A stretch of DNA of 60,237 nt, from positions 86,110-146,346 of the forward strand of contig JBNGIO010006336.1 of assembly GCA_049999805.1 (NCBI GenBank), given 5' to 3'. The notes below the pieces were generated by a model. The model worked only from the letters and a program-made list of their open reading frames with translations. It made no database searches and was not told where the DNA came from. The position numbers and the translations under genes were made by a program. The DNA comes from Folioceros fuciformis. Taxonomy: Eukaryota. Shown piece by piece: positions 8,402 to 53,879 of this stretch (within the stretch, counting starts at the first letter, position 1; each line of letters opens with the position of its first letter).

Positions 8402-10216
8402 ATGGCCCCGGTGCAGCGGAAGCTGCGGAAGGCTCTGGGGGCCGTGAAGGACCAGACTAGTATCGGGCTGGCCAAGGTGGCCAGCTCCCGTGCCCCGGAC
8501 CTGGACATTGCCGTGGTGAAGGCCACCAGCCATTCGGAGTCTCCGGTGGACGACAAGTATGTGCATGACCTGCTGCAGTTCATGTCCTACTCCCGGCAGT
8601 ATGCCACAGCCTGTGTAGGGGCCGTAGCCAGGCGGCTGAGCAAGACTCGGAACTGGGTTGTGGCACTCAAGTCCCTCATGCTGGTGCACCGGCTGCTGCG
8701 GGACGGGGAACCCAGTTTTGACGAGGAGTTCGTCCACGGTAATCGGGTCTTGCACATCCTTAACATGTCGGGGTTCAGGGATCATTCCAGCTCTAGTGCC
8801 TGGGATTACTCCGGGTTTGTGCGGACATACGCAATGTATCTGGATGAACGTTTGAGGAGCTTGCCTCCCAGATTGCAAGAAAACAAGAGTGGAGGACGAA
8901 GGGGACATGGGGAGTACCTTTCCAACGCGGGGGAACGGGAAGAGGACGCACGCAACTCCAAGAAAGAGCAGCAGCCCACCAACATCAAGGACATGAAACC
9001 AGAAGCCTTGCTGCAGAGACTGCCTGACCTGCAGCAGTTGCTAGAGCGGGTGATAGGATGCGGTCCCACTGGTGCTGCAAGGACGCATCGTCTTGTGCAG
9101 ATTGCCCTGTATTCTGTGGTCATCGAGAGCAGCCTGATATACGCCGATATATTTGATGGGGTCACCATTCTGCTGGATGGCTTTTTCGACTTGGAGTACA
9201 ACGACTCTGTAAAGGCCTTGGACATTTACAAGTTGTCGGCCAAGCAAGCTTCCAGCGTTGCCTCCTTCTATGGGCTGTGTAAGAACATCGGTATAGGTCG
9301 GCCTGTAGATTACCCCAATGTGCAGCCTGTGTCTCAGGACAGCTTGGACACGTTTGAGGAATACGTGAGGAACATGCCCAAGGGTCGGGGTAGACGGCGG
9401 AGCAGGAGCCCTGAGCCACAGGCTACGAGGGTGGATCCTCCCCCACAAGCAGATCCTGCCAAGCCCTTGGGTGACAAGGTTGAGAGGGCTCCCGAGTGGA
9501 CCAACGGGGGGACTGCACGGGAGCACAACAAGGGTGATGATCTCTTGAACATGGATGAACCAGCTATATCAGCGGATGAGCAGCACAACAGCCTAGCGTT
9601 GGCTCTGTTTTCGGAGTCCACATCCACGCCTACGCCCAAATGGGAACCCTTTGGCCCATCAACCGAGCAAGCAGGTCCTCCAAATGGGACAGCCACACCA
9701 GCAGAGTCAGAGACAGGACAGGCTGGGTGGGAGCTGGCTCTGGTGGAGGAATCAACAAACATTCGGGCTGCACACAGGGCCCAGATGGCTGGTGGGTTCG
9801 ACAACCTACTGCTGGAGAGCATGTACGAGCAGGGAGCAGCTGTGCAGCAGGCTGCGGTGGCCACCTCCTTCATCGGCGGCAGTGCCAGCAGTGTGGCTCT
9901 ACCCAACCGACCTGCCTCCTCCTTCTTGGCACTGCCAGCACCTCCTGGTGCGGGTCCACTACCCACAGCAGGAGGGGAGGACCCATTTGCGGCTTCAGCT
10001 GCCGTGCCCCCTCCTGCTTATGTGCAGATGGCAGACCTGGGGAAGAAGCAATCGTTGCTGCAGCAGGAGCAACTGGCATGGCAAAGGTATCAGGCGGATG
10101 GAATGCAGGGATATCACGGCTTCATGAGAGTAAACAACAACCCTTACCTGACAGGTTCACTTAGCTTCAACTCCAACCGCGGATTGCAGGGTCCAGGGCC
10201 TTATGCACACTACTAG
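8402..10216 (+). CDS. ANTH-domain clathrin assembly protein (AP180/PICALM family), single exon, 604 aa
   Basis: RKALGAVKDQTSIGLAKV, DIAVVKATSH, RLSKTRNWVVALKSLMLVHRLL, and C-terminal GWELALV, GGFDNLLLESMY, DPFAAS..VPPPAYVQM motifs. Confidence 0.95.
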   Translation: MAPVQRKLRKALGAVKDQTSIGLAKVASSRAPDLDIAVVKATSHSESPVDDKYVHDLLQFMSYSRQYATACVGAVARRLSKTRNWVVALKSLMLVHRLLRDGEPSFDEEFVHGNRVLHILNMSGFRDHSSSSAWDYSGFVRTYAMYLDERLRSLPPRLQENKSGGRRGHGEYLSNAGEREEDARNSKKEQQPTNIKDMKPEALLQRLPDLQQLLERVIGCGPTGAARTHRLVQIALYSVVIESSLIYADIFDGVTILLDGFFDLEYNDSVKALDIYKLSAKQASSVASFYGLCKNIGIGRPVDYPNVQPVSQDSLDTFEEYVRNMPKGRGRRRSRSPEPQATRVDPPPQADPAKPLGDKVERAPEWTNGGTAREHNKGDDLLNMDEPAISADEQHNSLALALFSESTSTPTPKWEPFGPSTEQAGPPNGTATPAESETGQAGWELALVEESTNIRAAHRAQMAGGFDNLLLESMYEQGAAVQQAAVATSFIGGSASSVALPNRPASSFLALPAPPGAGPLPTAGGEDPFAASAAVPPPAYVQMADLGKKQSLLQQEQLAWQRYQADGMQGYHGFMRVNNNPYLTGSLSFNSNRGLQGPGPYAHY

Positions 10217-17498: not shown

Positions 17499-17598
17499 NN
17501 NNNNNNNNNNNNNNNNNNNNNNNNNNNNNNNNNNNNNNNNNNNNNNNNNNNNNNNNNNNNNNNNNNNNNNNNNNNNNNNNNNNNNNNNNNNNNNNNNN
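17499..17598. other. Assembly gap (100 N)
   Basis: Run of exactly 100 N. Confidence 1.
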
Positions 17599-31100: not shown

Positions 31101-32807
31101 GTGAGTTTAAGGCCTCACATTAAAGGAGACAATACCCTCGTTCAGTAGAGTGCAAACATTGCAACGCCATCTTCTTCCACCATCCAGAAAAACTACGTAA
31201 GGATTTATGTAAGTGCGACACCGCCTGCATCTCACGATATTTGAAGCCCCAAAATTGACAACCGGTACTTCTTCCTGAGAAATTCAACCAGAGTGACTTA
31301 AGCCAACCAACAAACAAACCTACCGAAGCACAAGGCAGCCTAGAACCTCAGCGGTCCCACATGTCACTCAAATCACAATGGGCTCGGGAGGAACTCCTAC
31401 CCCCTTGGGTGCTTCAGCAAGAGGGTGGACGATGGTACCAAGAGGAAGATGCCAGCGAGCGAGGAGGGAATTCGAATTAGGCATGGCATTAGTAGTCAGC
31501 CGCATGAATCGAGGATGACAGTTAGCCACATACGCACGATCGGGGGAGTCTGACTGATCAGACGGCCGCGGGAGGATGGCAGGATCAATCGATGAATCCA
31601 GAGCCCCTGGAACCGGGACCACGGACAGTGACTGAAAATCTTCCTGCACAGCTTGCATGCTCGAATTCTGCGTCGTAAGATAACCTCCCACAAGAGGAGA
31701 CCCGTCCAATGCAGATCCACCAGCATACGCTGCAGCTCCTCCGGCAGCACCATAAGAACTAGGAGGGGGGCCGATCGGCGGTCTTCCGAAGGAGGAAGCT
31801 TGAGGGGGAGAAGCAGATCCATAAGTTGGCGGTCCTCCATACGGAACGCTCGTGGGAGGGGCCGATGAAAACCTAGTTCCAAAAGTAGGGGGGGCTACAG
31901 GAGGTGCACCAAAATCGTCTCCTTGAGTGTAGGCAGGGGGCACCTGGGAAGGAGGGGGTCCAACCGCCCTGACGCCCCCGGGAAGAGAGGGAGGAGGAGG
32001 AGAAACCGAGCTCGCCACTCCCGTACCTGGCAGTCTGGGAGGGGGTCCCATGGGGACAGGCGGAGTGGCCGGCGGTGGTTGGGGGAAAGGAGCAGCTGAG
32101 GGAGCAGGCGGAGGACGGAACATGGAGGGAGGAGAAGCCCCGGCAACCAGGGAAGCCGATAGCAATGACCCGCCCTGTCCCGGCGGAGCTCCAAAAGGAG
32201 GAGGAGGCCTCGAAAACTGAGATGCGGCCACAGGAGCAGAAGCCGGAGGTCCTGCATATCCTGGTGCCTGGGAAAACCCCCCTAAAGGAGCACCTGCTGC
32301 CTGCAATCCTGGGGGACCTGGAGGGCCAGCGGGAGGTCCTGGAAGACCCGTGGGAGGCCCTGGAATGCCTGCGGGGGGCCCTGGAAGGCCTGCAGGCGGC
32401 CCTGAAACGCTTGTGGGAGGCCCTGGCAGTCCTGAAAGCGGCCCCGGAGCTTGGAGGAGATTGTAGGGCCCCGGGACCTGCTGCGGAGGCTTCAAGCTTC
32501 TGATCGGCTGATGTGCAAAGGGCGATTGTCCAGAACCCGGTGGCGGCCCCGATCCGGGTCCTGGCTGCGCGGGAGGGACTCCCAAAAGCCCCCCATGCCG
32601 TGGCCCCGTGCCGAACACCGGGGGGGGCCTCGAAACGACTGGTGCACCTGCAACATCCATGGCCAATTCAAGCTCCAGCGCCAAAATTCCGCATCAACCC
32701 TAGCTCCGCTCTGCTGCAAACAGTAGCTCACCTGCGTAGGAGGGGCGTGGCCCGCCTGATGAAAACGAGGACACAGGCTCAGGGCCCGGGACTTGATCCG
32801 CGTCCAT
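28130..32807 (-). CDS. SEC24: COPII coat subunit SEC24 (SEC24A-like), multi-exon, with a Pro-rich N-terminus
   Basis: [13 protein letters not shown], zinc finger [87 protein letters not shown], gelsolin-like C-terminus ending QKGP*. Confidence 0.95.
29323..29451 (-). other. U12-type (minor spliceosome) GT-AG intron in SEC24
   Basis: 5' splice site CT|GTATCCTTT and branch site CCCTTGAC about 10 nt before the CAG|. Removal gives the conserved [15 protein letters not shown]. Confidence 0.85.
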
Positions 32808-33379: not shown

Positions 33380-36300
33380 TCAGGGTCGACCCTTGCAACT
33401 GCAAGAACCATCTGCAAATCGATGCACACGGTATCCATCCCTCACGACAATGTCTCTGTGTTCTAGCCTGGACATGATCTCCGTGGAACTGTGGCAGTCA
33501 CTGCACATGCGTAGATTCTTCGTTACCACCAGGGGTGTCCCACTGGGAGTGTTCAGAAGACCGAACGCCAGAGCTAGCTTCTCAGCATGCCCGCAAAGCG
33601 CATCTTCCTTTTCCTTCTCGCACAATGGCTTCAGCACCAACTTCGTGTGCGGTGCGTGGCCGCCTTCCTGCCGTAGACGTGCATTCGTGCTCTCTACCTT
33701 CAGGGCAATGTCCTCCCTCCTTTCTCCCACCAGAAATCTATGTACCTGCTTGTTCACCTCAATGGTCGCCGCGGCAGGTTTCTTGTGAGCTCCTGCTACC
33801 GTTCTCTGTGTTTCAATCCTGCCTGCGTCGCTCCACCTGCCTTCGTCTGCGTAGGCGTTGGCCATGAGCACGTATGCGGACGCTTGCTGCGGTTCCAGTG
33901 CAACCAGACTCTCAAAACACCAGACGGCCCTCTCCAGGTCCCCGTGGCTCTTGCATGCATTCAACAGGGACGTCAAACCTACAGCGTTCCTCTGGCCTTC
34001 TTCACATGACAGTAGCATATTCTCTGCCTCGTCTAGGTGGCCTGCACGTCCAAGAAGATCGATCATGCAGTTGTGGTGCTCGATAGTAGGTTTTATACCG
34101 TGCTCTTCAGTCATGGAATCGAAGTGCTTTCGTCCCTCGTGGACCAGTCCCCCGTGACTGCACGCTGCTAGAAGGCAGATAAAAGTAACCCCGTCAGGCT
34201 GGACGCCAGCGGCTAGCATCTCATCAAAACAAGCTAGCGCTTTGCGACCATCGTCACAAGTACCGTATCCAGATATCAGGGCATTCCATGTCACCACATT
34301 CTCTGTGGCCATGCTGTTGAACACCCGGCGTGTATCATCCAGCTCACCGCATTTTGCATACATGTCCATCAGGCAGGTGCCCAACGCTACATCCAGCAGT
34401 CCTCTTTCCACAATCTGTGAGTGTAGATCCCTGCCCTTCTGTAAGGCGCCGCTGCTTGCGCAGGCCTTCAAAACGCAAGAAAACGTAACGTGGTCAGCCA
34501 AAATGAGGCTCTCCTGCTCCATTTGTCCATACAGAACAAGAGCCTCTTGGCTTTGTCCTTGCTGTACATACCCAGCTATCAGGGCATTCCATGTCACCAC
34601 ATCCTTGGTGGCCAAGCCTTCAAAAACCTGATGTGCATCTTTCAGTTCACCACACTTTCCATACATGTCCACCAGGCAGTTGCCTAGCAATACATTATCC
34701 AGGAGTCCTCGTTCAACAAGCTGTGAGTGCAACTCCCTCCCCTTCTCCAAGGCACCAGTGATCGCGCAAGCCTTCAGAAGGCAAGCAAAAGTAACATGGT
34801 CAGCAAGAACGAGGCCCTCTTGCTCCATTTGTCCGTACACAGCAAGCGCCTCTTGGCCGAGTCCCTGCTGTGCATACCCAGCAATCAGCACCGTCCACGT
34901 GACCACATCCTTTGTGGCCAAGCTGTCGAAAACCTGGTGGGCATCTTCCAGTTCTCCGCATTTTGCATACATGCCCACCAGACAGTTGGCCAGCACTACG
35001 TCATCCAGCAGCCCCATTCTGACAATCTGTGAGTGCAGCTGCCTGCCATTCTGTATGGCACCAGAGTTAGCACATGCCTTGAGAAGGCAAATGAAAGTCA
35101 CATCGTTAGCCACAAGCAAACCCTCTTGCTCAAATTGCCCATACAATTCAAGTGCCTCACGACCGAGTCCTTGCTCTGCATACGCTGATATCAGGGCATT
35201 CCATGTCAAAGCATCCTTTTTGGCCATGCTGTCAAAAACCTGGCGTGCATCTTCCAGTTCACCACAGTTTGCATACATGTCTATCAGGCAGTTGCCCAAC
35301 ACTACGTCATCCAGAAGCCCTCTTCCCACAATCGCCGAGTGCAGCTGCCTACCCTTCTGCAAGGCACCAGTGCTTGCACAGGCCTTAAGAAGGCAGGAGA
35401 ATGTGACCTGGTCAGCCAAGATAAGGCCCTCCTGCTCCATTTGTCCATACACGACCAGCGCCTCTTGGCCGAGTCCTTGCTGTACATACCCAGCAATCAG
35501 TGCCGTCCATGTCACCACATCCTTTGTGGCCAAGCAGTCAAAAACCCGACGTGCATCCTCAAGTTCACCACATTTTATGTACATGTCCATCAGGCAGTTG
35601 CCCAACACTACGTCATCCAGCAGTCCCTTTTCAACAATCTGTGTGTCCAGCTCCCTGCCCTTCTGCAAGGCGCCAGTGCTTGCACAGGCCTGCAGAAGAC
35701 AAGCAAAAGTCACATGGTCAGCCAAAATGAGCCCCTCCTGCTCCATTTGTCCGTACAGAACAAGTGCCTCTTGGCTGCGTCCTTGCTGTGCATATCCAGA
35801 AATTAGCACCGTCCACGTCACAACATCCTTTGTGACCATGTCCTCAAACACCTGATGTGCGTCATTCAGTTCACCACATTTGGCATACATGTCTACAAGG
35901 CAGTTGCCCAACACCACGTTACCCAGCAGTCCTCTTTCCACAATCTGAGAGTGCAGCTGCCGGCCCTCCAGTAAGGCACTAGTGCTCGCACAGGCCTTTA
36001 AAAGGCAAGCAAAAGTGACATGGTCAGCCAAAATGAGGCCCTCCTGCTCCATTTGTCCATACACAACAAGCGCCTCTTGGCCGAGTCCTTCCTGTGCATA
36101 CCCAGCTATTAGCGCTGTCCAGGTCACCACATTCTTTGTCGCCATGCTGTCAAAGACCTGGCGTGCTTCTTCCAATTCACCACATTTTGCATACATGTCC
36201 ACCAGGCTGGTGCCCACCAGGATGTCATCCAGCAGCCTTCTTTGCACAATCTGTGAGTGTATCTGCCTGCCCATCTGCAATTCACCAGTGCTTGCACAGG

Positions 36301-37489
36301 CCTTCAGAAGGCAAGCGAAAGTAACATGGTCAGATAAAATGAGGCCCTCCTGCTCCATTTGTCCGTACAGAAGAAGCGCCTCATGTCCAAGCCCTTGCTG
36401 TGCATACCCAGCAATCAGTGCATTCCATGTTACCACATTCTTTAATGCCATGCTGTCAAAGACCTGGCGTGCATCTTGCAGTTCACCACATTTCGCATAC
36501 ATGTCCACCAGGGAGGTGGCAACAAACACATCTGGAGGAATGCCACTGTGAAATACATCACAGTGCACATTCCTGCCAGATTCCAAGTCGGCGGCAAATG
36601 CGCACGCTTGAAGGGCAGCTACGAAGACGTGAGCATCCGCCTTCACTCCTGACCTGCGCATGTCATGGTACAGTTGCACGGCCTCCTTTGGTTTCCCATG
36701 CTTTGCGTATGCGGAGATTATGGAAGACCACATGAAGACATCTGGTCTCCCCACCTTGTTGAGCACATTCCTGGCTTCCTCTAGCCTACCTCCATTTGCA
36801 TACATGCGCAGGATATGATTTCCCAAGTATGCATTCGACTCGTACCCAAGTTTGACAATGAGATTATGAAGTCGTCGCCCCACAACCAGGTCCTTCTTAG
36901 CCGTACACAGTTTCAGCACAGTGTAAAGCAGAGACCGAGAAATGGCAGATTCTGTCTGTGCCAGAGATTCCAGGGCTCCAACTGCCTCAGAAAGCTTTCC
37001 CTGCTGACATAACAGGGTCACAGTTCCAGTCGTTACGAAGCCCATCTCCGATCCTGCGCGCCTGCCAGGTTCAGACTCGTTATCCAGGGACCTGGACTTG
37101 GAAGCAGAGGCACCATGACCCATCTGCATATCCACGGACACGAGCTGCTCATCAACCCAAGATGGTTTAAACACGTCATTTAACCACAGGACCTCGCCGG
37201 ACCCCTTACGCCGGAAGTCAGGCGAGCTGGAGCTCCTGGTGCCTCCTCTGTTGTCCCACCACATCGTAGGGTCCAGGAAAAATTGTTGCCACAAGTGCTC
37301 CTGCTCCTGGCGGCGACCATCGCTGGAAAGCGGAGGTTCTGGGCTCCTCACACTGCTGCACCTGGAGGCTTGGTTGCTTGCCAGGGCTTGAGCCCGTGAG
37401 CTGAGGGGAGAGGGAGCTCCTCGTAGAATCCCTGTAAACACACCAACGTGTTGGGTCCACAAAGAGTCCGGTTGCCATACTGTGGCCAT
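33380..37489 (-). CDS. PDF-motif + long PLS PPR array (9 S motifs, ~30 repeats) + E1/E2 + DYW:KP domain ending GRP; candidate U-to-C editing factor. True 5' end uncertain
   Basis: 1369-aa ORF with KKPAAATIE, HAEKLA, CSDCH and CSCKGRP*. N-terminal LWQQFFLDPTMWWDNR..SPDFRRKGSGEVLWL..KPSWV. Confidence 0.95.
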   Translation of the reverse strand: MATVWQPDSLWTQHVGVFTGILRGAPSPLSSRAQALASNQASRCSSVRSPEPPLSSDGRRQEQEHLWQQFFLDPTMWWDNRGGTRSSSSPDFRRKGSGEVLWLNDVFKPSWVDEQLVSVDMQMGHGASASKSRSLDNESEPGRRAGSEMGFVTTGTVTLLCQQGKLSEAVGALESLAQTESAISRSLLYTVLKLCTAKKDLVVGRRLHNLIVKLGYESNAYLGNHILRMYANGGRLEEARNVLNKVGRPDVFMWSSIISAYAKHGKPKEAVQLYHDMRRSGVKADAHVFVAALQACAFAADLESGRNVHCDVFHSGIPPDVFVATSLVDMYAKCGELQDARQVFDSMALKNVVTWNALIAGYAQQGLGHEALLLYGQMEQEGLILSDHVTFACLLKACASTGELQMGRQIHSQIVQRRLLDDILVGTSLVDMYAKCGELEEARQVFDSMATKNVVTWTALIAGYAQEGLGQEALVVYGQMEQEGLILADHVTFACLLKACASTSALLEGRQLHSQIVERGLLGNVVLGNCLVDMYAKCGELNDAHQVFEDMVTKDVVTWTVLISGYAQQGRSQEALVLYGQMEQEGLILADHVTFACLLQACASTGALQKGRELDTQIVEKGLLDDVVLGNCLMDMYIKCGELEDARRVFDCLATKDVVTWTALIAGYVQQGLGQEALVVYGQMEQEGLILADQVTFSCLLKACASTGALQKGRQLHSAIVGRGLLDDVVLGNCLIDMYANCGELEDARQVFDSMAKKDALTWNALISAYAEQGLGREALELYGQFEQEGLLVANDVTFICLLKACANSGAIQNGRQLHSQIVRMGLLDDVVLANCLVGMYAKCGELEDAHQVFDSLATKDVVTWTVLIAGYAQQGLGQEALAVYGQMEQEGLVLADHVTFACLLKACAITGALEKGRELHSQLVERGLLDNVLLGNCLVDMYGKCGELKDAHQVFEGLATKDVVTWNALIAGYVQQGQSQEALVLYGQMEQESLILADHVTFSCVLKACASSGALQKGRDLHSQIVERGLLDVALGTCLMDMYAKCGELDDTRRVFNSMATENVVTWNALISGYGTCDDGRKALACFDEMLAAGVQPDGVTFICLLAACSHGGLVHEGRKHFDSMTEEHGIKPTIEHHNCMIDLLGRAGHLDEAENMLLSCEEGQRNAVGLTSLLNACKSHGDLERAVWCFESLVALEPQQASAYVLMANAYADEGRWSDAGRIETQRTVAGAHKKPAAATIEVNKQVHRFLVGERREDIALKVESTNARLRQEGGHAPHTKLVLKPLCEKEKEDALCGHAEKLALAFGLLNTPSGTPLVVTKNLRMCSDCHSSTEIMSRLEHRDIVVRDGYRVHRFADGSCSCKGRP

Positions 37490-40194: not shown

Positions 40195-40669
40195 CTAGTA
40201 AGCTGGGATCCGAGAGTAGCTGTAGCCTCTGCATCCGCGCCACGAGTAGTATGCAATCCTGGTCTCATAGAACCCTGCAATCCAGGAGCAGCACAGCACC
40301 AGGCAGGAAGATGAGGCTCATTTCAAGGATTTCGCAACGCATGCAAGAAACAGGGCTGGACCCGTCCCTCTCCCTCCCCCTACCTGGTAAGAAAAGCAGG
40401 ATTCCTAAGGTCAGGAAGCCATAGGCTTGAGACCTGTCACCGCCCATGTGGCTCGTGAAGATGAGGTGGGAGATGGTGAGGAAAAGCGTCCCGAACGTGA
40501 GCAGAAACACCGCCAACGCTATAGCTTTCCAGGGTACCGGATCCTTCGGCTGGTACTTGAACCGCAGATCTTCAACACGTTGCGGCCGTGGTCGCGGCTT
40601 CGCGTGCAGCATGGGCTCGTCATCCTCCTTACCCAGAGCAGAGTATCGCACGCCGGCTCGATCAGCCAT
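40195..40669 (-). CDS. TMEM230: Transmembrane protein 230 (DUF872) homolog, 2 exons
   Basis: VPWKAIALAVFLL.FG...LGILLFLPG|FYETRIAYYSWRG.RGYSYSRIPAY*. Confidence 0.9.
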
Positions 40670-40750: not shown

Positions 40751-43700
40751 ATGAAGCAAGGAGCTTTGGTGAGTCTGATTAGAAGACGCAGTTTTGGCAG
40801 AAATTTTTCCTGGCTGCAGGAACGACGCAGATCAGGAGTCAGCGTCTGTGGTAAGTGGCCGTCTGCTTAGGGTTTCCATCTGTATCGAGCTGGGCATCCC
40901 TGTGCTCCAGTTGATTCCTTGAGGTGTTGCCCATTATGCAGTGGAATCAAGTGGAGAAGAGACTGTCTGGGGCAACTTTTTGGCAGACACATCACCCTTG
41001 AGGAACAGCAGATCGAACACGGTAACTCTGCCTGGAACCTGGCCCGGAGAAGGTCAGGAAGATCAGCTGAGTGAGGTTGTTGAAGCCTTGGATCAGCTGA
41101 TAGCTCAAGAATTCTATGTCCCAAACCGACTCCTCTACCGTGTTTTGGAAGGGTGCATTGCCAGGAATGACTTGGGTGGGGGAAGGAGGGTTCATGCTCT
41201 CACGTTGGAGACTGGACTGCATGGCCCAAGTACGTTCTTGGCCAACCATATCATCCGCATGTATGCTTCTCATGGTTTGTTGGAGGAAGCTGCACAGGTG
41301 TTTGCCTCACTGGCTACACCGAACACCTTCTCCTGGTATTATATTGTTTCGGCACACGCTCAACATGGACAGCCGAAGGAGGCCATACGCCTGTATCAGC
41401 AGATGCGGGGGTCATTGGTTAAGGCAGACAGCAGAGTGTTCGTGGCGGTTCTCAAGGCTTGTGGAAGCGCAGCGGACCTGGAATGTGGGAGGCAGGTGCA
41501 TGCCGATATCCTGGATAGTCTGCTTGAGCCTGACATGTTTCTTGGCTGCAGCCTAGTCGACATGTACGCAAAGTGCCAGAGCTTAGGGGATGCACGAAGC
41601 GTCTTTGACCAGTTGGGGTCAAGGGATGTAGTAACATGGACTGCCATGATCTCAGGATATGCTCATCATGGGTGTGGTCAAGAAGCGCTTTCCCTTTACA
41701 GAGATATGCAGCTGGAGGGTGTCTCTCCAGCTGATCGCGTCACGTTCATGTGTCTCTTGAAAGCGTGCTCCACCGTCGGAGCATTACATATGGGCAAGGA
41801 TCTTCACGTACAAATTCAGGAGAAAGGCTTGGAGAGTGATGTGGTTGTTGGCAACTGCTTGGTGGACATGTATGCCAAATGTGGCAGGTTAGAGGATGCG
41901 CGCAGTGTGTTTGACAAATTGGCCGCGAAGGATGCAGTGACATGGACTGCCATGATTAGTGGGTATCTTCAGCATGGGCTTGGTCAAGAAGCCCTTGCTC
42001 TGTATTCCTGCATGCCGACAGGGGACAAGAGTTTATTCGATCCTCACACCTTTGTGTGCCTTTTAAAAGCGTGCTCCAGGGTACGGGCGCTAGAAGAAGG
42101 TAAACAGCTTCATATCCAGATTCGGAGCAGAGGGCTGGATGCAGATGTTGTTGTTGGCTGCAGCCTGGTGGAGATGTATGGAAAATGTGGCAGCTTAGAG
42201 GATGCCAACAGAGTGTTCGATGCCTTGCTGCACAAAGATGTGGTGACGTGGAACACAATGATCGCGGCATTTGCTGAGCAGGGGCTTGGCCAAGAAGCCT
42301 TGACGATGTATGCGCGGATGAGAGAGGAGAGCAGCGCTGTAGCCAATGATGTGACATTCCTGTGTCTCTTGAAAGCCTGTGCCACCAGTGGGATCCTGCA
42401 CCAGGGGAAGCATCTTCACTTCCACATCAAAAACAGTGGACTGGAGGCTGATGTGGTTGTGGGGAGCAGTTTAGTGGATATGTATGTAAAATGCGGGAGT
42501 GTAGAGGATGCTCGGAAAGTGTTTGACAGCTTGCCTACAAAAAATGTGGTGACATGGACTGCCATGATTTCAGGGTACGTGGATAATGGGCTTTGCCAGG
42601 AAGCCCTCTCTCTTTACGAAAGAATGGAGGAGCAAGGCGTCTTTCCCGCTGATCATGTAACATTTGTGTGCCTCGTGAAGGCATGTGCCAGTGTTGGAGC
42701 GTTACATCAAGGGAAGCAACTATATTCTCAGATTCAGGAAAGGGGGTTGGAAACTAATGTGGTCGTAGCCCAGAGCGTGGTGGATATGTTTGCAAGATGC
42801 AGCGGTCTAGAGGATGCACGCAGAGTGTTTGACAGTTTGCCTGTCAGAGAAGTGGAGACATGGACTGCGATGATTGCTGGGTATGCCCAGCATGGGATGG
42901 GTCAGGAAGCTCTTTCACTTCATGCTAGGATGAAACGGGAGTGCCTAGATACAGCCAGTCATGCAACATATGTGTGCCTCCTGAAAGCCTGTGCCAGTAT
43001 TGGATCCTTAGACAAGGGCAAGGAGCTGCACTGTGAGATTCGGGAAAGAGGACTTGATGCTGATGTGACTGTGAGCAATTCTCTGGTAGACATGTATGGC
43101 AAATGTGGGAGCGTGGAAGATGCTCGCCGGGTTTTCGATCAGTTGTCATCCAAAGATACGGTGACATGGAATGCCATGATTGCAGGATATGCCCAACATG
43201 GGCTTGGTCAGGAAGCTCTCAGTCTCTATGAATGCATGCAAGCGGAGGGCTTCACTCCTGCGAATGAAGTGACATACATTTCCCTCCTGAAAGCTTGTGC
43301 AAGCGTCGGAGCGTTCCATCAAGGAAAGGGTCTTCATTTGCTCATCCAGAACAGAGGCTTGGACACGGATGTTGTTCTTGGCAGTGTCCTTGTTGACATG
43401 TACGCCAAATGCAGCAGCTTAGAGGAGGCTCGGAGAGTCTTCGACGAGTTACCCACGAGGAACGTGGTGACATGGAATTCTCTGCTGAATGCATGCGGAC
43501 AGCACAACGACGGCCGAAGGGCAGTTCAGTGTTTCCAGGAGATGCAGCGGCACGGAATCGAGCCTGACAGCTCCACTTTTCTCTGTCTGCTGGTGGCCTG
43601 CAGCCACTCTGGACTGGTCCATGAAGCTAAGACGTATTTCAAGATGATGGTGGATGATCATGGAATCACTCCCAGTGTTCACCATTTCAACTGCATGGTC

Positions 43701-44378
43701 GATGTTCTTGGGCGGTCAGGACAACTGGACGAGGCTGAGCAACTGCTGCGAAGCACGCCATCCAAGCATGATTTGGTGGGCTGGATATCTTTGCTGACTG
43801 CTTGCCGGAGCCATAGTGACGTCGAACGTGGATGGCGATGCTTCGACCAAATCATGCAGCTAGACCCCAAGAACGCAGCGGCTTACGTCCTGTTATCAAA
43901 CATTTTGGCCAATGCCGGAAGGTGGAGCGAAGTAGAGCGCATAGAGACCCTGAGAAGATCCGCAGGCGCGAGCAAGAAGCCCGCAAAGGCTTGGATCGAG
44001 GTGAACGACAAGGTCCACAATTTCACTGTGGGAGAAGACAGGGGAGACGTCTCCTCCAAGCTAAGGAGCGTGAATCTCCGTCTGGAGACGGAAGGCGGCC
44101 ATGTGCCCCACACGGAGTTGGTGCTCAAACCATTGTCGGAGAAAGAGAAGGAAGACGCCCTGTGTGGGCATGCCGAGAAGCTAGCACTGGCCTTCGGTCT
44201 GCTCAACACCCCAGACGGCACAACGTTGCTGGTGACCAAGAATCTCCGTATGTGCGATGATTGCCATAGCGGCACAAAAATCATGTCCAAGCTGGAGAAG
44301 CGAGCGATCATAGTTAGAGATGCTCACCGTGTTCATCACTTCGTGAATGGGCTTTGCTCGTGTGGGGATCATCTGTAA
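40751..44378 (+). CDS. PLS PPR (8 S motifs) + E1/E2 + DYW:KP ending GDHL. Exons 40751-40850 and 40942-44378
   Basis: Exon 1 MKQGALVSLIRRRSFGRNFSW... is targeting-peptide-like and joins by a phase-1 GTAAGT..CAG intron. KKPAKAWIE, HAEKLA and CDDCH are present. Confidence 0.93.
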
Positions 44379-44454: not shown

Positions 44455-47400
44455 ATGAAGAAGGGTCATCCTGTAGTGTCAAGCCTGCTACAAGGCAGAG
44501 TCCGTGCTCTGAGCAGCACCGCCTTGGAGGGTGGCTGTCGACAAGCTTCCACTCTGCAGGCGGCAGCTGATCAGCGTCCATCTCTTGGTGAGGCCAGTTC
44601 GTCTTTGCTGCCTGTTGGTCCAATTGTGAGTCTGAGCCATATTGCTGGGGGATTTGCATGTGAGATCCGTTTAGCTGGCTTGCAGCGGAGGCGAGAGGAT
44701 GGAGCGCCGATAAGTTGCAGTGGTCGGGAAGCTGGACATGCCCCGACTTCATGCACGGAGCAAGGGAGGCTTTATGCGTGGAATCTTCGGGTCTGAGTGA
44801 ACGGCCGCCAGGGAGGTTGTACCAACCTGGAGTCAAGTTCTGGAGGTCCAGCCACTTTACTGCTTTGGGTTTTTTGATGCATCTGTGACAGTCTTCAGCT
44901 CTGGGGTCTGATGGTCTGGTAAATTTGACCTTGCAGGTTTAGAATTGCCGAAGACGGTTTGGGGAATGGAAGCTCCAGAGAGCTCAGTCAGGCTGTTAAG
45001 GAGTTGGACCTCCTTGTGCGCCATCGATCTGATGTTTCTGACTCAGTTTTCTACCGTGTCCTCAAGGGATGCATTTTGGAGAAGGATGTGGTGGCTGGCA
45101 GGCGTGTTCATTTTCTGGCCCTTAAAGCTGGGCATCAGAAGAATGCATTCTTGGCCAGCCACATAATTCGGATGTATGCTTCTCGCGGGAGGTTGGAGGA
45201 AGCGATGGAGGTGTTTACCGCGTTTGCTGAGCCCGACAAGTTTATGTGGGCTTCCATCATTCTGGCACATGCTGAACATGGTCAGCCCATGCAGGCGATA
45301 GAGCTTTATCGATGCCTGAATCAATCGACGTTGAAGGCCAATGATCCCGTTTACGTTGCAGTCCTGAAAGCGTGTGGCAGTGCAACTGATTTAGCTGCAG
45401 CCAAGCAGGTGCATGCCCATGTTTTGTGCAGTGGTGGTCAGCCGAGAATGTTTGTTGGGAGCTGCCTGGTGGACACGTATGTGAAATGTGGAAGCTTGGA
45501 GGATGCCCGCAGGGTGTTTGATAGCTTGCCTGCAAAGGACGTAGTGACATGGACAGCCATGATTGCAGGATACGCACAGCATGGCCTCGGACACGAAGCC
45601 CTGATGTTGTATGCAAGTATGCAACAGCAGGGCATGACCCTAGCCAATCAAGTTACTTTTGTTTGCCTCCTCAAAGCGTGTGCTTCTGTCGGAGCCTTGC
45701 ATCACGGTAGGCAGCTGCATCTCCAGCTTCAGGAAAGAGGCTTGGCCTCTGGTTTGGCGGTTGGCAGCAGCCTTGTGGACATGTATGCAAAATGTGACAG
45801 CCTGGAGGCAGCTCGCAGTGTCTTTGATGGTTTACACCTTAGAGACGTGGTGATATGGAATTCCATGCTTTCAGGATATGCTCAGCAAGGGCACGGTCAA
45901 GCAGCGCTGCAACTCTATGCAAGCATGCAGCAGGAGGGCGTTATCTCGCCCAATGAGGTCACATTTGTATGCCTTCTTAGAGCCTGTGCTGGCATTGGAG
46001 CTTTGCACGAGGGTGAGAAGTTGCACCTTGAGATTCGGGAGAGGGGATTGGAAACGGATTTGGTGGTTGGCAGCAGTCTGGTGGACATGTACATGAAATG
46101 TGGGAGCGTGGACAAAGCGCAACAATTGTTTGACCGAATGCCTGCACGAGATGTAGTGACGTGGACTGCAATGATCATAGGATATGCTCAGCATGGACTG
46201 GGACAAGAAGCTCTGGCTCTTTATACGAGCATGCTAAACCAGGGCATCCGCCCTGTGGACCCTGTTACGTTCGCATGCCTACTGAAAGTATGTGCAGGTG
46301 TCGGGGACTCTAGCCTAGGACTGCAGCTCCATGAACAGATTCGAAATGAAGGGCTGGAAGCGGATTTGCTTGTTGGCAGCAGCCTTGTGGACATGTATGT
46401 GAAATGTGGAAGCTTGGCAGATGCCCGGAAGGTCTTCGACAGAATCCCGACAAAAGATGTTGCAACCTGGAATGCAATGCTGGCGGGCTATGCCGAGGCT
46501 GACTTTCACCAGGACGCCCTTAACCTTTACGCCAATATGCAACAGGAGGGGGTCACCTTACCTGATTCTCGGACATTCGTGTACCTCCTTAAAGCATGTG
46601 CCAGCAGTGGTGCTTTAGATGACGGCAAGGAGCTACATTCCGAGTTACAAGAGAAACGAATGGAGGCAGATGCAGTTTTGGGAAGCAGCCTTGTCGACAT
46701 GTATGTAAAATGTGGCAATTTAGACGAAGCTCGGAGAGTGTTTGACCGACTCCCCTCAAGGGACGTGGTGGCATGGACTTCCATGATCGCAGGGTATGCC
46801 CAAAACGGAGATGCTCGGCAAGCCCTTGCTTTGTTTCAGAGTATGGAAGAAGTCTTTCCAGCTGACCAGGCGACCTTTGTGAGCCTTTTGAAGGCATGTG
46901 CTAACGCTGGAACGTTGCACCTTGGGAAGCACCTTCATTCCCATACTCAGAGAAGAGGGCTGGAACCTGATGTGGTTGTTGGCACCTGTGTGGTGGACAT
47001 GTATGCCAGACTTGGCGACTTGGAGGCTGCTCGCAGAGTGTTTGACAGATTACCAACTCGAAATGTAGTGACATGGAATGCCATGCTAGCAGGGTATGCT
47101 CAGCATGGTCTTGGTCAAGACGCCATCGCTCTGTACAGTGAAATGAAACAGCAAGCTGCCATACCGGCTGATAAAATTACGTTTCTGTCTCTTTTGAAGG
47201 CATGTGCTAGTGTGGGCGCGTTACATCAGGGTCAGCAGCTTCACGAAGAAATCCGGGAACGAGGATTGGAAGGTGATGCTATCATCAGCAGCGCCCTTAT
47301 TGACATGTACGCAAAATGTGGGCGCGTAGAGGATGCCCGAAGTGTGTTTGAGCGAGTGCCAACAGGAGATGTCGTAACCTGGAATGCTATGATGAACGGG

Positions 47401-48264
47401 TTTGCCCACCATCAGGATGGCAAAATGGCAATTTGCATTTTCAAGGAGATGCAGGAGCAAGGTGTTGAGCCTGACGATGCCACTTTTCTCTGTCTCCTAG
47501 TGGCATGCAGTCATGCAGGGCTCGTGCGCGACGGACAGGAGTACTTCAAAATGATGGTGGAGAACTACGGGATCAAACCAACTGCTTACCACTTCAACTG
47601 TATGGTGGACATATTTGGCCGGTCAGGGCACTTAGAGCAGGCAGAAAACTTGCTACGAAGTACGGACTGCGAGGATGATGCGGTTGGGTGGACCTCTTTG
47701 CTCAGTGCATGTAGAAGCCACGGAGACATCTCGCGCGGGATCCGATGTTTTGACCGCTTAGTCCAATTGGAACCTCAAAATGCAGCTGCTTACGCCCTTA
47801 CGTCCTCCATGTATGCCAGTGTCGGCCAGTGGAAGGACGCAGAAAGGATAGAGAACCTGCGACAGATAGCAGGTGCTTGCAAGAAACCTGCAAGGGCCTG
47901 GATAGAGATAGACAGCAAGGTGCACGACTTCCTTGTAGGGGACGAGAGAGATGACATCACGTCCAAGCTAAGGAGTGCAAATTTGCTAATCGCAGAACAC
48001 GGGGCTGATGGGCACCATACCGAGCCAGTCATGAAGCCTGATGCTCTGTGTGGACATGCTGAGAAACTGGCACTTGCCTATGGTCTGTTGAGCACTCCGG
48101 ATGGCACACCTTTGGTAGTCACGAAAAACCTTCGGATGTGCAACGACTGCCACAGCGGAACCAAGATTCTGTCGAGGGTGGAAAGGCGAGAGATCATAGT
48201 TAGAGATGCACATCGTGTTCATCACTTCGTGGACGGGTGTTGTTCCTGCGGGGATCGGCACTGA
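44455..48264 (+). CDS. PLS PPR (8 S motifs) + E1/E2 + DYW:KP ending GDRH. Inferred exons 44455-44587, 44686-44845, 44937-48264
   Basis: KKPARAWIE, HAEKLA, CNDCH, CSCGDRH*. Upstream exons MKKGHPVVSSLLQGRVRALSS... splice in phase (phase 1, then phase 2); the second donor, GTCCAG, is weak. Confidence 0.9.
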
Positions 48265-48607: not shown

Positions 48608-48707
48608 NNNNNNNNNNNNNNNNNNNNNNNNNNNNNNNNNNNNNNNNNNNNNNNNNNNNNNNNNNNNNNNNNNNNNNNNNNNNNNNNNNNNNNNNNNNNN
48701 NNNNNNN
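48608..48707. other. Assembly gap (100 N) within an AG-rich tract
   Basis: Run of exactly 100 N flanked by GAGAAG-type repeats. Confidence 1.
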
Positions 48708-50654: not shown

Positions 50655-53600
50655 GTGTCAGGAGCAAAGCAGATGGTTGTCGTTCTAATTAAGGCCGGTG
50701 AGTGGTATCCTGTTCCTGCTCATAGCACGTCATTCAGACAGAGGTCTACTCCCCCTCTTGTCGCAAGCACGTGTGCAGATCCGACGAAGGAAAATGCTTC
50801 GGATAGCAAGAGTCCTACCAAAGACTCAGCGGGTCGGCACCAGGAGCTCTTGTGGCGACAGTTTTTCCTGGACCATACACTCTGGTGGGATAACAGACGA
50901 CGCAAGAAGAATGCTCGATATTCGCCTGACTTCAGGCATAAGGAGTCCCTAGAGGTACTCTGGCTGAACGACAAGAACAAGCCAGCTTGGGTTGATGGGC
51001 AGCTTGCTGCTCTCGATATGCGGATGGGTCGTGGAGGACACGATACGGGAGTTACGGCTGAAACCGTGACCCTACTATGTGAGGAGGGCCAGCTCGCTGA
51101 GGCTGTCGAAGCCTTGGGCATTCTGGTGCATACAGACTTTCGTGTCTCTCAGTCTCTATTTTTTACTGTCCTGAAAAAATGTGTGGCTCAGAGGAATCTG
51201 GTCCTGGGTCGCCGAGTTCATGCTCTCACTGTGCAAGGGGAGTGCGAGTCGGACACGTTCTTGTGCAACCACATAATGCAAATGTATGCTTCTTATGGCA
51301 GGTTGCAAGACGCCATGGATGTGTTTACAGTGGTTGCTAAACCAAATGCATTTACCTGGTCTGCCATAATTTCTGCGCACGTGAAACAGGGACAAGATAA
51401 GCAGGCCATGCTCTTGTATCACCAGATGCGCAGCTCAAGCATGAAGCCAGATGGCTATGTGTTTGTAGCAGCGCTTCAGGCTTGTGCAAGGGGGCAAGAT
51501 CTGCAATCTGGGCAGCAGGTCCATGCTGATGTGCTCGCCAGTGGGGTTGAGCCTGATTTGTTTGTCTGTAACTCTCTCGTGGACATGTATGCAAAGTGTG
51601 GATGCTGGGATGAGGCTCGAAGAGTGTTTGATGGACTTGATCGAAAAGATGTGGTGACATGGAATGCCATGATTGCAGGGTACTCCCAGCAGGGGATGGG
51701 GCAGGAAGCCCTGGATCTCCACAAGGCTATGAAAGATGAAGGCGTCGTTGCGCCTGATTCTGTGACATTCGTATGCCTCCTGCAAGCATGTGCAAGTGTG
51801 GGCCCTCCAGCTTTGGAGAAAGGGAAGCAGCTTCATGCACAAATCAGAAGACGAGGTCTCCAGATTGATGTGTTTGTGTCAAACAGTTTGGTGAACATGT
51901 ATGTGAAGTGTGGCAGCTTGGATGAAGCTCAATCAATGTTTGATGGACTTGTTCACAGGGACGTGGTCACATGGAATGCGCTGATTGCAGGATATTCCCA
52001 GCAGGGCAGAGCGCAGCAAGCTCTTGGCCTTTACACAATCATGCAAGAAAAGGGAAACATATCACCAGATGCTGTGACATTTAGGTGCCTCTTGCAGGCA
52101 TGTGCAGCTTTGGGTAACTCAAGTTTGGAGAAGGGAAAGGAACTTCACAGGGATCTTACAGATCGAGGGTTTCTGGCTGACATGTTCGTTGGCAACAGTT
52201 TGGTAGACATGTATGCAAAGTGTGGCAGCCTAGAGGATGCTCAAAGGGTCTTTGACGGACTGTGTCAAAAAAATGTGGTGACGTGGAGTGCCATGATAGC
52301 TGGGTACTCCCAGCAAGGCATGGGTGAGGAAGCTCTTGCTCTTTACAAGGCTATGCAACGGGAAGACATCAGTGCTCCTGATTCTGTGACGTTTGTGTGC
52401 CTCTTGCAGGCATGTGCAAGCACCCAGGCTTTGGAGAGGGGGAGGGAGCTTCATGCCCGGATTAGAGAAGAAAACCTTGAAGCTGACATGTTTGTAGCCA
52501 GCAGTTTGATAAGCATGTATGCGAAATGCGGCAGCCTGGAGGACGCTCGGGGTGTGTTTGACAAACTTGGCCAAAGGAACGTGGTGACATGGAGTGCGAT
52601 TATAGCAGCATATTCACAGCAGGACATGGGGCAGGAAGCCCTCGGCCTTTACACGGATATGCAAGAAGAAGGACTTGTCACACCCAATTCTGTGACCTTC
52701 GTAAGCCTTCTGCAAGCATGTGCACGTGTAGGCACGCCGACTTTGGATAAGGGAAAGCAGCTTCATGCACAAATTAGAGAACAAGGGCTTGAGGCTAATG
52801 CGTGTATAGCCAACAGTTTGGTATACATGTATGCCAAGTGTGGCAGCTTGGAAGATGCTCAAAGTGTGTTTGATGGACTTGATACAAAGGATGTGGTGAC
52901 TTGGAATGCCATGATTGCAGGATATTCTCACCAGGGCATGGGCCAGGAAGCCCTTCATCTGTACAAGGCTATGCAATCAGACGGCATGGCTGTGCCCGAT
53001 TCTCTAACATTTGTATGCCTCCTGCAGGCTTGTGCACGCGTGGCTGCTTTGCATGTGGGAAAGCAACTTCATGCTCAGATACAAGACATGGGCCTTGGAG
53101 CCAACGCGACTCTAGGCAACAGTCTGATAAACATGTATGCAAAATCTGGGAGTATGGTTAACGCTCAGCAGATATTCGATGCTTTGCCCGAGAGAAATGT
53201 TGTCACCTGGAGTTCACTGATTGCAGGATACACCCGCCAAGGCGACAGTGATAAAGTTTTCGACCTGCTTCTTAAAATGCGAGAGGACGGAGCACAGCCA
53301 GAAGGCATCACCTTCCTTAGTGTGTTGACAGTATGCAGTCATACGGGTCTAGTGACCAAAGGCCGAGAGTACTTCGAAGCCATGAGCACGCAATTCCTCA
53401 TCACTCCCGCGGTGGAGCACTACGCATGTATGGTGGATCTCCTGGGTCGTGCAGGCCAACTGCACGAGGCACTATCACTGGTAACAACAATGCCTGTGCC
53501 ACCTAACGCATCGGTTTGGCACACTCTGTTGGGTGCTTGCCGAAAATGGGGCAATGTGCAGGTAGGACGCCGTGCCTTCGATGAAGCCGTGCAGCTAGAC

Positions 53601-53879
53601 GAGAAGGATGCTGCAGCGTATGTGCTCATGATAAGCATCTACAGAGGTGCCCAGATGTGGGATCAGGCTCGCCGAATGCAGGCCAGGAGAATAGGGATGA
53701 GGGCATGGAAGCAGCCAGGACAGACCTGGTGGACAGATATGGACGGGCTGGTGCATGAGTTTCTGGTCGGGGACAAGAAGCATCATGACAGTGAAGCTAT
53801 ATACGCAACACTGCTACAGCTCCAATCCAAAATCACGAACGAAGGTTATCTGTCACTCGTTTCTTCGTCCCCGGGTTAG
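50655..53879 (+). CDS. PDF-motif + PLS PPR (7 S motifs) + E1/E2 + WW-type PG box with truncated DYW (no deaminase motif). Probable in-frame intron 50698-50778; 5' end uncertain
   Basis: WKQPGQTWWTDMDGLVHEFLVGD...EGYL then stop, with no HxE or CxxC downstream. N-terminal LWRQFFLDHTLWWDNR..SPDFRHKESLEVLWL..KPAWV. Confidence 0.92.
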   Translation: MSGAKQMVVVLIKAGEWYPVPAHSTSFRQRSTPPLVASTCADPTKENASDSKSPTKDSAGRHQELLWRQFFLDHTLWWDNRRRKKNARYSPDFRHKESLEVLWLNDKNKPAWVDGQLAALDMRMGRGGHDTGVTAETVTLLCEEGQLAEAVEALGILVHTDFRVSQSLFFTVLKKCVAQRNLVLGRRVHALTVQGECESDTFLCNHIMQMYASYGRLQDAMDVFTVVAKPNAFTWSAIISAHVKQGQDKQAMLLYHQMRSSSMKPDGYVFVAALQACARGQDLQSGQQVHADVLASGVEPDLFVCNSLVDMYAKCGCWDEARRVFDGLDRKDVVTWNAMIAGYSQQGMGQEALDLHKAMKDEGVVAPDSVTFVCLLQACASVGPPALEKGKQLHAQIRRRGLQIDVFVSNSLVNMYVKCGSLDEAQSMFDGLVHRDVVTWNALIAGYSQQGRAQQALGLYTIMQEKGNISPDAVTFRCLLQACAALGNSSLEKGKELHRDLTDRGFLADMFVGNSLVDMYAKCGSLEDAQRVFDGLCQKNVVTWSAMIAGYSQQGMGEEALALYKAMQREDISAPDSVTFVCLLQACASTQALERGRELHARIREENLEADMFVASSLISMYAKCGSLEDARGVFDKLGQRNVVTWSAIIAAYSQQDMGQEALGLYTDMQEEGLVTPNSVTFVSLLQACARVGTPTLDKGKQLHAQIREQGLEANACIANSLVYMYAKCGSLEDAQSVFDGLDTKDVVTWNAMIAGYSHQGMGQEALHLYKAMQSDGMAVPDSLTFVCLLQACARVAALHVGKQLHAQIQDMGLGANATLGNSLINMYAKSGSMVNAQQIFDALPERNVVTWSSLIAGYTRQGDSDKVFDLLLKMREDGAQPEGITFLSVLTVCSHTGLVTKGREYFEAMSTQFLITPAVEHYACMVDLLGRAGQLHEALSLVTTMPVPPNASVWHTLLGACRKWGNVQVGRRAFDEAVQLDEKDAAAYVLMISIYRGAQMWDQARRMQARRIGMRAWKQPGQTWWTDMDGLVHEFLVGDKKHHDSEAIYATLLQLQSKITNEGYLSLVSSSPG

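Follow-up and report, generated by a model that had tools for sequence, protein, structure and literature searches.

Organellar RNA-editing factors are usually described as proteins of two parts: a pentatricopeptide repeat (PPR) tract reads the RNA, and an E/DYW part at the C-terminus acts on this RNA. In seed plants, the editing machinery is completed by separate helpers (MORF, ORRM, and OZ), and some lineages without MORFs edit very heavily in both directions. In this study, we analyzed a stretch of 60,237 nucleotides of Folioceros fuciformis DNA (assembly GCA_049999805.1, contig JBNGIO010006336.1, positions 86,110 to 146,346 of the forward strand), which as a whole is called the window below. 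A gene on its minus strand encodes a PPR protein of 1369 amino acids, and the segment between the presequence-like N-terminus and the repeats is almost certainly a PDF motif, that is, a domain homologous to the repeat of the organellar single-stranded DNA (ssDNA) binding proteins, the OSBs. Judged by sequence, what appears to be new is the combination: two known parts joined in an unreported, widespread, and conserved way.

The PDF motif of AtOSB1 consists of about 50 residues, is named for Pro-Asp-Phe, and was reported to be enough alone for ssDNA binding (PMC6963530). OSB1 and OSB2 prefer ssDNA over double-stranded DNA or RNA (PMC4166229), and the dissociation constant of AtOSB2 with ssDNA was about 9-12 nM (PMC6451138). 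The motif was described as restricted to green plants (PMC4166229). The DYW:KP proteins of hornworts fall into two variants, DRH and GRP, named for their last three residues; those of the GRP variant are candidate U-to-C editors and the basis of the designer proteins KP2 and KP3, and designer KP proteins were reported to have activity (PMC9478123). RRM-P, RRM-E, and RRM-DYW fusions were reported across Archaeplastida, and MORF genes were reported only in seed plants (PMC13386178).

The OSBs share with the 1369-residue protein the same motif positions over about 50-57 residues (LW..FF..P..WWDNR...K....PDF.HK....LWL....P.WV..L), in 1-3 tandem copies with short linkers. However, their PDF motifs stand C-terminally after an OB-fold-like domain and end at a median of 96% of the protein length, whereas the motif studied here is N-terminal and its partner is a PPR-E-DYW part. 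Pfam gave no SSB or OB match in the 1369-residue protein or in its N-terminal 163 residues, and because it lacks such a domain the protein does not count as an OSB, despite its OSB-type domain. The hornwort GRP proteins resemble it in the PLS array, the E motifs, the KPAxA-type box, HxE, CxxCH, and the terminal GRP. The available part of their account (PMC9478123) does not mention an N-terminal PDF motif, and only the PLS and C-terminal parts went into the designer proteins. The RRM-PPR fusions (PMC13386178) follow the same concept, a sequence-specific PPR array plus a small general nucleic-acid binder, but the added domain differs. The MORF/RIP helpers of seed plants offer a possible functional analogy only, as a non-catalytic and non-specific aid to PLS editing factors; they have no sequence relationship to it and exist as polypeptides of their own, unlike the PDF motif in the PPR proteins.

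An earlier note on this DNA knew of no described PDF-PPR-DYW architecture. Our literature search agreed with this and found no description of a PDF-PPR fusion, although some key earlier papers and supplements lay outside the search and may mention one. The terms 'PDF motif' and 'pentatricopeptide' occurred together only in a replication review, which did not link them. The main text of a kingdom-wide survey of editing-factor fusions from 2026 (PMC13386178) contained no 'OSB', 'PDF', or 'single-stranded', and 'PPR' did not occur in a study from 2026 on the OSB genes of 59 species (182 genes).

The PDF motif and its gene

A 59-residue piece (37133-37309, minus strand) was searched with phmmer against 1.84 billion representative proteins. 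At a threshold of E<=1e-3 it matched 501 proteins, far beyond chance; 97 of them passed E<=1e-10 and 14 passed E<=1e-30, and many carried several matching stretches, up to 13. Among them were P0039 from Populus nigra, named 'protein OSB1, mitochondrial-like' (E 2.2e-19), and P0046 from Euphorbia peplus, named 'organellar single-stranded DNA binding protein 3' (E 1.3e-17). OSB1-, OSB2-, OSB3-, and OSB4-named proteins of several angiosperms, some of them with the precomputed Pfam SSB family PF00436, were added by a later profile search. A word-indexed search with residues 55-130 among proteins of 752-2396 amino acids gave no match, which is put down to its word filter, since phmmer detects such proteins. 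Moreover, a profile hidden Markov model (HMM) was built from 310 matched PDF domains of database proteins and run on the six-frame translation of the window. It matched the first copy over 56 residues (37306-37139, minus strand) with 74.6 bits and an independent E-value (i-E) of 1.4e-24. A second significant match lay at 50841-51008 on the plus strand (59.1 bits, i-E 9.2e-20), and the next two, with i-E values of 2.4 and 6, were noise. The motif can be aligned end to end with the OSB repeats and contains the Pro-Asp-Phe signature. These results bear out the homology to OSB PDF motifs that the earlier note had claimed, including the profile match of this ORF (open reading frame) that it had proposed as a check.

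In an alignment of 41 motifs (14 PPR-linked and 27 others), the invariant columns were D19, R21, D31, F32, L41, W42, and W51, all of which are present in the window copy; Trp and Phe were thus among the invariant or nearly invariant columns. Pfam assigned no family to the N-terminal 163 residues or to the 53-residue motif, and since the PDF motif has no Pfam model, surveys based on Pfam are blind to the fusion. A sequence search of the PDB gave nothing significant; its best match was the N-terminal region of a CP29-type chlorophyll a/b protein (E 0.05 with the single sequence, 0.24-0.39 with a profile). The likeness to CP29 (9hd7_R, 6kac_R, and 8bd3_R), in which the second half of the motif (LWL....P.WV..L) faces LWLPNT.RP.WLDGSL, was set aside as chance at E values of 0.05 to 0.39. 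A one-residue insertion was rejected as a marker of PPR-linked PDF motifs, as the same 57-residue form occurs in many non-PPR ones.

The coordinates of the gene and its parts are collected in Table 1. Translation of 37142-37300 on the minus strand recovered all 53 residues of the PDF-like segment quoted in the earlier note, and they are residues 64-116 of the protein. The whole frame (33380-37489, minus strand) runs uninterrupted from ATG to stop, and an in-frame stop two codons before the ATG at 37489 makes a longer N-terminus within the exon impossible. Residues 1-61 contain 11 Ser, 6 Ala, 6 Arg, and 6 Pro, with only 3 acidic residues and no Lys. The landmarks of the motif are WWDNR (77-81), PDF (90-92), and LWLND (101-105). 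On the whole protein, Pfam matched PPR_2 (9.1e-155), PPR (4.5e-150), and E_motif (4.1e-13; 49.8 bits, cut-off 27.3), and DYW_deaminase matched residues 1277-1367 with 110.2 bits (cut-off 24). By inspection, the DYW region contains a KPAxA-type box (KKPAAA, 1236-1241), HAE (1301-1303), CSDCH (1329-1333), and the terminal GRP (1367-1369); the KP/PG typing was made by eye with criteria from PMC9478123. All sequence features tested place the protein among the PLS PPR-DYW:KP proteins, in the GRP variant, and the open frame and the Pfam matches to PPR, E, and DYW families agree with the statement of the earlier note that the motif is fused to such a protein in one ORF. Its U-to-C editing is a candidate activity.

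The constraint on the motif was evaluated by the Nei-Gojobori method in a comparison of the two paralogues of the window that carry it. In the region before the motif, which could hardly be aligned (55 aligned codons, 22% amino acid identity), the proportion of nonsynonymous differences (pN) was 0.62, that of synonymous differences (pS) was above saturation, and dN/dS was not computable. In the PDF motif (57 aligned codons, 63% identity), pN was 0.19, pS was 0.54, and dN/dS was 0.23, compared to 0.253, 0.656, and 0.20 in the PPR repeats (245 aligned codons, 57% identity). These codon comparisons indicate that the motif is under purifying selection. Seventeen of the 37 residues of the linker (118-154) could be aligned with the window paralogue, which has a deletion there.

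The fold was predicted with AlphaFold2 (AF2). The motif alone, with a 41-row alignment, reached a predicted local distance difference test (pLDDT) score of 89.1 and a predicted template modeling (pTM) score of 0.71, and its layout was a helix (2-12), two strands (17-19 and 32-34), a short strand (40-41), and a helix (50-58). When residues 1-330 were modeled with 16 aligned rows (overall pTM 0.58), residues 1-49 had a pLDDT below 50, the PDF blocks reached 81-96, and the PPR helices reached 94-98, while the linker residues 129-139, 141-144, and 146-148 were again below 50. In this prediction a disordered presequence comes first, followed by a folded mini-domain that a flexible linker connects to the solenoid. 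The PDF model had no usable counterpart in Foldseek (best E 6.6) or in VIA-align against 48,161 chains (best Z 2.6), from which fold novelty does not follow. The best score in the ESM Atlas, 0.82 to phage gp49-like clusters, was below a meaningful level.

Some further observations concern the same gene. Within its PPR tract, positions 34275-36512 form a tandem repeat of 7.3 copies of 306 bp with 79% matches and units of 102 amino acids, which suggests a recent internal duplication of a P-L-S triplet. The runs X2, X6, and X20, from three studies, gave dozens of short contigs of uncertain kind with at least 90% identity over the PDF-coding bins. Across position 37277 there were 37-63 such contigs; loose ends occurred at 37329, just upstream of the motif, and the coverage was over by 37584. 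The contigs would fit a large family of close paralogues sharing the PDF-coding start, a reading to which we give little weight. Run X1 has the appearance of DNA, with an exact match to the flanks and a low depth.

Spread and origin of the PDF-PPR architecture

Among the best 150 phmmer matches, 12 also matched the PPR part of the 1369-residue protein, and Pfam found PPR families in all six of these 12 that were submitted to it; of three further proteins, one was a kinesin and two had SSB matches below the cut-off. A profile of 14 PPR-linked motifs, run against longer proteins, found 388 at E<=1e-5 among 8000 scored candidates, of which the best 120 were listed. In a set of 272 proteins, which was gathered by PDF similarity, partly with this PPR-linked profile, from the top matches of each search and whose proportions are not those of an unbiased census, 268 had a PDF match and 74 had both PDF and PPR. 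The fusion is thus no one-off and is found in at least 74 proteins of public proteomes and a second time in the window itself. All PDF copies lay N-terminal to the repeats in 73 of the 74 proteins; one copy was present in 33, two in 33, and three in 8. A terminal S2/E region of the PLS type was found in 62. The DYW domain was present in 20, comprising 16 of the PG type with a DYW end, one of the KP type with a GRP end (P0139), and three left untyped by a simple pattern, and many of the other PDF-PPR proteins were E-type without DYW. By comparison, in 155 non-PPR PDF proteins longer than 250 amino acids, the last PDF motif ended at a median of 96% of the length, as in OSBs.

The median gap from the last PDF motif to the first PPR match was 16 residues, and a median of 85.5 residues preceded the first PDF motif. 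This constant placement just upstream of the first repeat is what would be expected if the motif caps, stabilizes, or solubilizes the N-terminus of the PPR solenoid, or aids import or folding, without any ligand. However, a disordered linker precedes the repeats in the 1369-residue protein, and the pTM of the joint model was low, at only 0.58. Moreover, many paralogues, three of them in the window, do without the motif, and the same domain works C-terminally in unrelated OB-fold proteins. We consider such an intramolecular helper very unlikely.

Species names were available for 71 of the 74 proteins, and all of these were from lycophytes, ferns, or Sphagnum: 60 from Diphasiastrum complanatum, 2 from Selaginella moellendorffii, 4 from Pteridium aquilinum, 2 from Adiantum capillus-veneris, 2 from Ceratopteris richardii, and 1 from Sphagnum compactum. 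None of the 71 came from a seed plant, an absence seen in this limited sample. The distribution is complementary to that of MORF, which belongs to seed plants, again within the limited sample of named PDF-PPR proteins. The entries of Pteridium aquilinum are ORFs of single transcriptome contigs, one of them with 1374 amino acids, three PDF motifs, and a PPR array, so PDF and PPR stand on one mRNA in a relative. The uninterrupted frame in the window and these single-contig fern ORFs indicate that PDF-PPR is a real fusion and not a merged gene model.

Unusual combinations were also seen outside this group. P0174, which scored 468 bits as the top match in the profile search and has many PDF repeats, clustered at 90% with P0304-P0306 of the dinoflagellate Cladocopium goreaui. 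If these gene models are right, the motif occurs outside green plants. P0059 (Coptis chinensis, 1526 amino acids) and P0003 (Kingdonia uniflora, 1160 amino acids) are a pair in which one has three PDF motifs before a kinesin motor and the other has 13 PDF stretches; these may be genuine fusions or expansions, or else the models may have merged separate genes.

A special link of the motif to U-to-C editing found no support. In the window, the PDF motif was found only on the GRP gene and on a second gene with a PG box. The latter encodes a PLS-type protein of 1074 amino acids with an E motif and the PG box WKQPGQTWW, which ends about 50 residues past the box. Pfam found PPR families and the E motif in it but no DYW_deaminase, and no DYW-like match lay downstream in any frame. 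Furthermore, 16 of the 20 DYW-bearing PDF-PPR proteins were of the PG type and one was KP:GRP, besides the many E-type proteins. The suggestion that the motif may direct base conversion to DNA likewise found no support, as proteins of the PG type and proteins without DYW carry the module too. When the DYW region, taken as residues 1200-1369, was used as a query, 26 proteins were returned, three of which ended in GRP: P0275 had a PDF motif (72 bits), P0276 started right at the first PPR helix, and P0278 had no PDF motif. The remaining KP-type proteins of this search had none. GRP-ending proteins with the motif were thus three of five (the 1369-residue protein, P0139, and P0275), against P0276 and P0278 without it, and an association between PDF and GRP is a tendency at most. 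The motif was therefore rejected as a KP- or GRP-specific feature.

Residues 15-44 of P0281, a KP-type PPR protein, contain a degenerate trace of the motif (DPSQWWYNRS, i-E 0.017), which suggests that the module was lost by decay in some paralogues. This trace would also suit the view that the window copy itself is a decaying remnant of a fusion, or that it is absent from the mature protein because it is cut off with the transit peptide or skipped by a downstream start. In the window copy, the conserved Lys and His are gone and the basicity is the lowest among the motifs compared, and the gene structure was read here from DNA sequence alone. On the other hand, the dN/dS of the motif equals that of the PPR repeats while the presequence diverges freely, all invariant columns are kept, the fold is confidently predicted, and the architecture is conserved in lycophytes, ferns, and a moss. 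A relic is thus extremely improbable.

To place the PPR-linked motifs, a FastTree tree was calculated from 401 PDF domains (51 PPR-linked and 350 others) thinned at 75% identity. The label 'PPR-linked' required 10 changes on it, compared with a mean of 48.4 and a minimum of 44 in 200 shuffles, a contrast that is inflated by kinship. Both window copies and P0139 formed one group with a support of 86. In a quick IQ-TREE tree (LG+G4, 57 columns) of the 51 PPR-linked domains and 70 chosen at random from the 350 others, 3 changes were needed. The best tree with all 51 PPR-linked domains in one clade was 21.3 log-likelihood units better than the free search, and the p-value of the approximately unbiased test was 0.782. 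These sequence trees are compatible with a single origin of the PPR-linked PDF motifs, which is neither rejected nor demonstrated with 57 columns.

A larger scenario can be drawn from this, in which PDF-PPR would be an ancient editor design of land plants. An OSB module would have been fused once and early in front of PLS PPR proteins, as a built-in helper anchoring editors on nascent transcripts or nucleoid ssDNA; it would have multiplied in hornwort-like, moss, lycophyte, and fern lineages and been dropped in seed plants, where separate MORFs took over. It fits the one-clade tree that was not rejected, the origin of all 71 named proteins in non-seed plants, and the limitation of MORFs to seed plants. 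As a whole, we regard this history as unlikely.

Possible role of the motif in the editing factor

PPR tracts bind RNA in parallel, so that their N-terminal repeats contact the 5' nucleotides; the DYW domain acts just 3' of the PPR-bound stretch. Because of this parallel binding, the PDF motif would lie 5' of the recognized sequence and far from the edited base, and that distance makes it more likely a capture or anchoring device than a catalytic part. With moderate confidence, we infer that the PDF motif of this protein is a tethered accessory binder of single-stranded nucleic acid. The proposal starts from the homology, architecture, constraint, predicted fold, and distribution described above. 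The segment would be a translated PDF domain, homologous to the ssDNA-binding repeat of OSBs and kept by selection. As it follows directly on the organelle-targeting presequence, the mature protein would start with this module. About 20-35 residues of flexible linker would join it to the PLS PPR array, which ends in DYW:KP of the GRP variant, and the gene would belong to an old and widespread PDF-PPR architecture in non-seed PLS editing factors of any C-terminal type (KP, PG, or E).

In its action, the motif would add a sequence-independent affinity for single-stranded nucleic acid. It may act 5' of the RNA stretch read by the PPR tract, and its ligand may be either RNA that lies upstream of the target or the ssDNA of the nucleoid where the transcript is made. 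The outcome could be the capture of the target, the retention of the editor in place, or a strand that is kept unfolded. Specificity (the PPR code) and catalysis (DYW) would remain in the C-terminal parts.

Several points weigh against the proposed accessory binder. The window copy has a net charge of -3, the lowest among the 41 motifs (range -3 to 8), and the Lys and Arg residues of its central loop number 5, the minimum of the set (median 6). A Lys that is kept in at least 90% of the motifs is replaced by Thr, and the His of PDFxHK is replaced by Arg, which also sets the copy apart from the OSB motifs. RNA would be a putative ligand, since OSBs favor ssDNA over RNA (PMC4166229). Nucleic-acid binding by this copy and a role in editing would have to be carried over by analogy from the OSBs. 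The start of the ORF at ATG 37489 is a predicted one. Furthermore, KP-type editors do not require the motif, as it is missing from three other DYW:KP genes of the window, and the proportions in the 272 proteins are no census, because the sampling followed PDF similarity and was partly PPR-biased.

In one sub-case the ligand would be DNA. The motif would then bind ssDNA at transcription bubbles or at replication or recombination intermediates, and the editor would be held in the nucleoid for co-transcriptional editing. The documented ligand of the OSB motif is indeed ssDNA, over RNA; the flexible linker suits a tether, and the copy number of 1-3, which OSBs have as well, resembles the scaling of avidity modules. 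But the low basicity of the window copy speaks against such a nucleoid tether, and a DNA and an RNA ligand are both compatible with the present results. We consider this sub-case rather unlikely.

The motif could also be a protein-protein module that recruits partners, such as OSBs, PDF-bearing proteins, or parts of the editosome, or that oligomerizes. OSB2 and OSB3 run as tetramers, and the available text does not state the domain responsible (PMC6451138). The conserved face, rich in Trp and Phe, could equally be a protein interface. A complex prediction with two copies of the motif had a score of 0.01 and gave no usable model, which counts neither way. On the opposite side, reviews give the motif alone as enough for ssDNA binding, a tandem arrangement with as many as 13 copies is what modular binders of nucleic acid typically show, and the partner is hypothetical. 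A protein-protein role is decidedly unlikely in our estimate.

The PDF motif points to a third, N-terminal component of editors, which is conserved, constrained, homologous to a proven ssDNA binder, and present in many PLS proteins of MORF-less lineages. If it binds single-stranded nucleic acid, as we propose, it would provide a testable handle on how targets are found or held, possibly during transcription. Designer C-to-U and U-to-C editors, now built without it, may then merit its addition, and the known range of the PDF domain would be widened beyond the OSB proteins.

Other genes of the window

The remaining features of the window are listed with the two PDF-PPR genes in Table 1. A degenerate PDF motif that had been seen by eye at the N-terminus of the KP gene at 40941-44378 was rejected, as it gave no profile match with filters off and E up to 10.

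Table 1. Coordinates of the two PDF-PPR genes, their parts, and other features of the window.
Feature	Position	Strand	Remarks
Start codon and presequence-like N-terminus	37307..37489	-	Residues 1-61
PDF motif	37139..37306	-	Residues 62-117; encloses the segment 37142-37300 of the earlier note; profile HMM match
Linker from PDF to first PPR-like helix pair	37028..37138	-	Residues 118-154
PLS-type PPR array and terminal E motifs	33785..37027	-	Residues 155-1235; Pfam
DYW:KP deaminase-like domain, GRP variant	33383..33784	-	Residues 1236-1369; stop codon 33380-33382
Second PDF motif	50841..51008	+	HMM; 63% identical to first copy
Second PDF-PPR gene	50655..53879	+	1074-amino-acid ORF from GTG, first ATG 6 codons in
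DYW:KP PPR ORF, DRH-like end	4875-7040	-	No PDF match
DYW:KP PPR ORF, DRH-like end	40941-44378	+	No PDF match
DYW:KP PPR ORF, DRH-like end	44959-48264	+	No PDF match
Ser-rich protein	269-3427	+	1052 amino acids; VARLMGL motif
ANTH-domain protein	8402-10216	+	247 bits
Pro-rich ORF	31368-32684	-	438 amino acids; no match in Pfam
TMEM230/134-like exon	40265-40669	-	
Run of N	17499-17598		
Run of N	48608-48707		

Within its 60 kb, the window thus contains five long intron-less PLS-type PPR ORFs, four of which are DYW:KP (with the ends DHY, GRP, DHL, and DRH) and one of which has the PG box.

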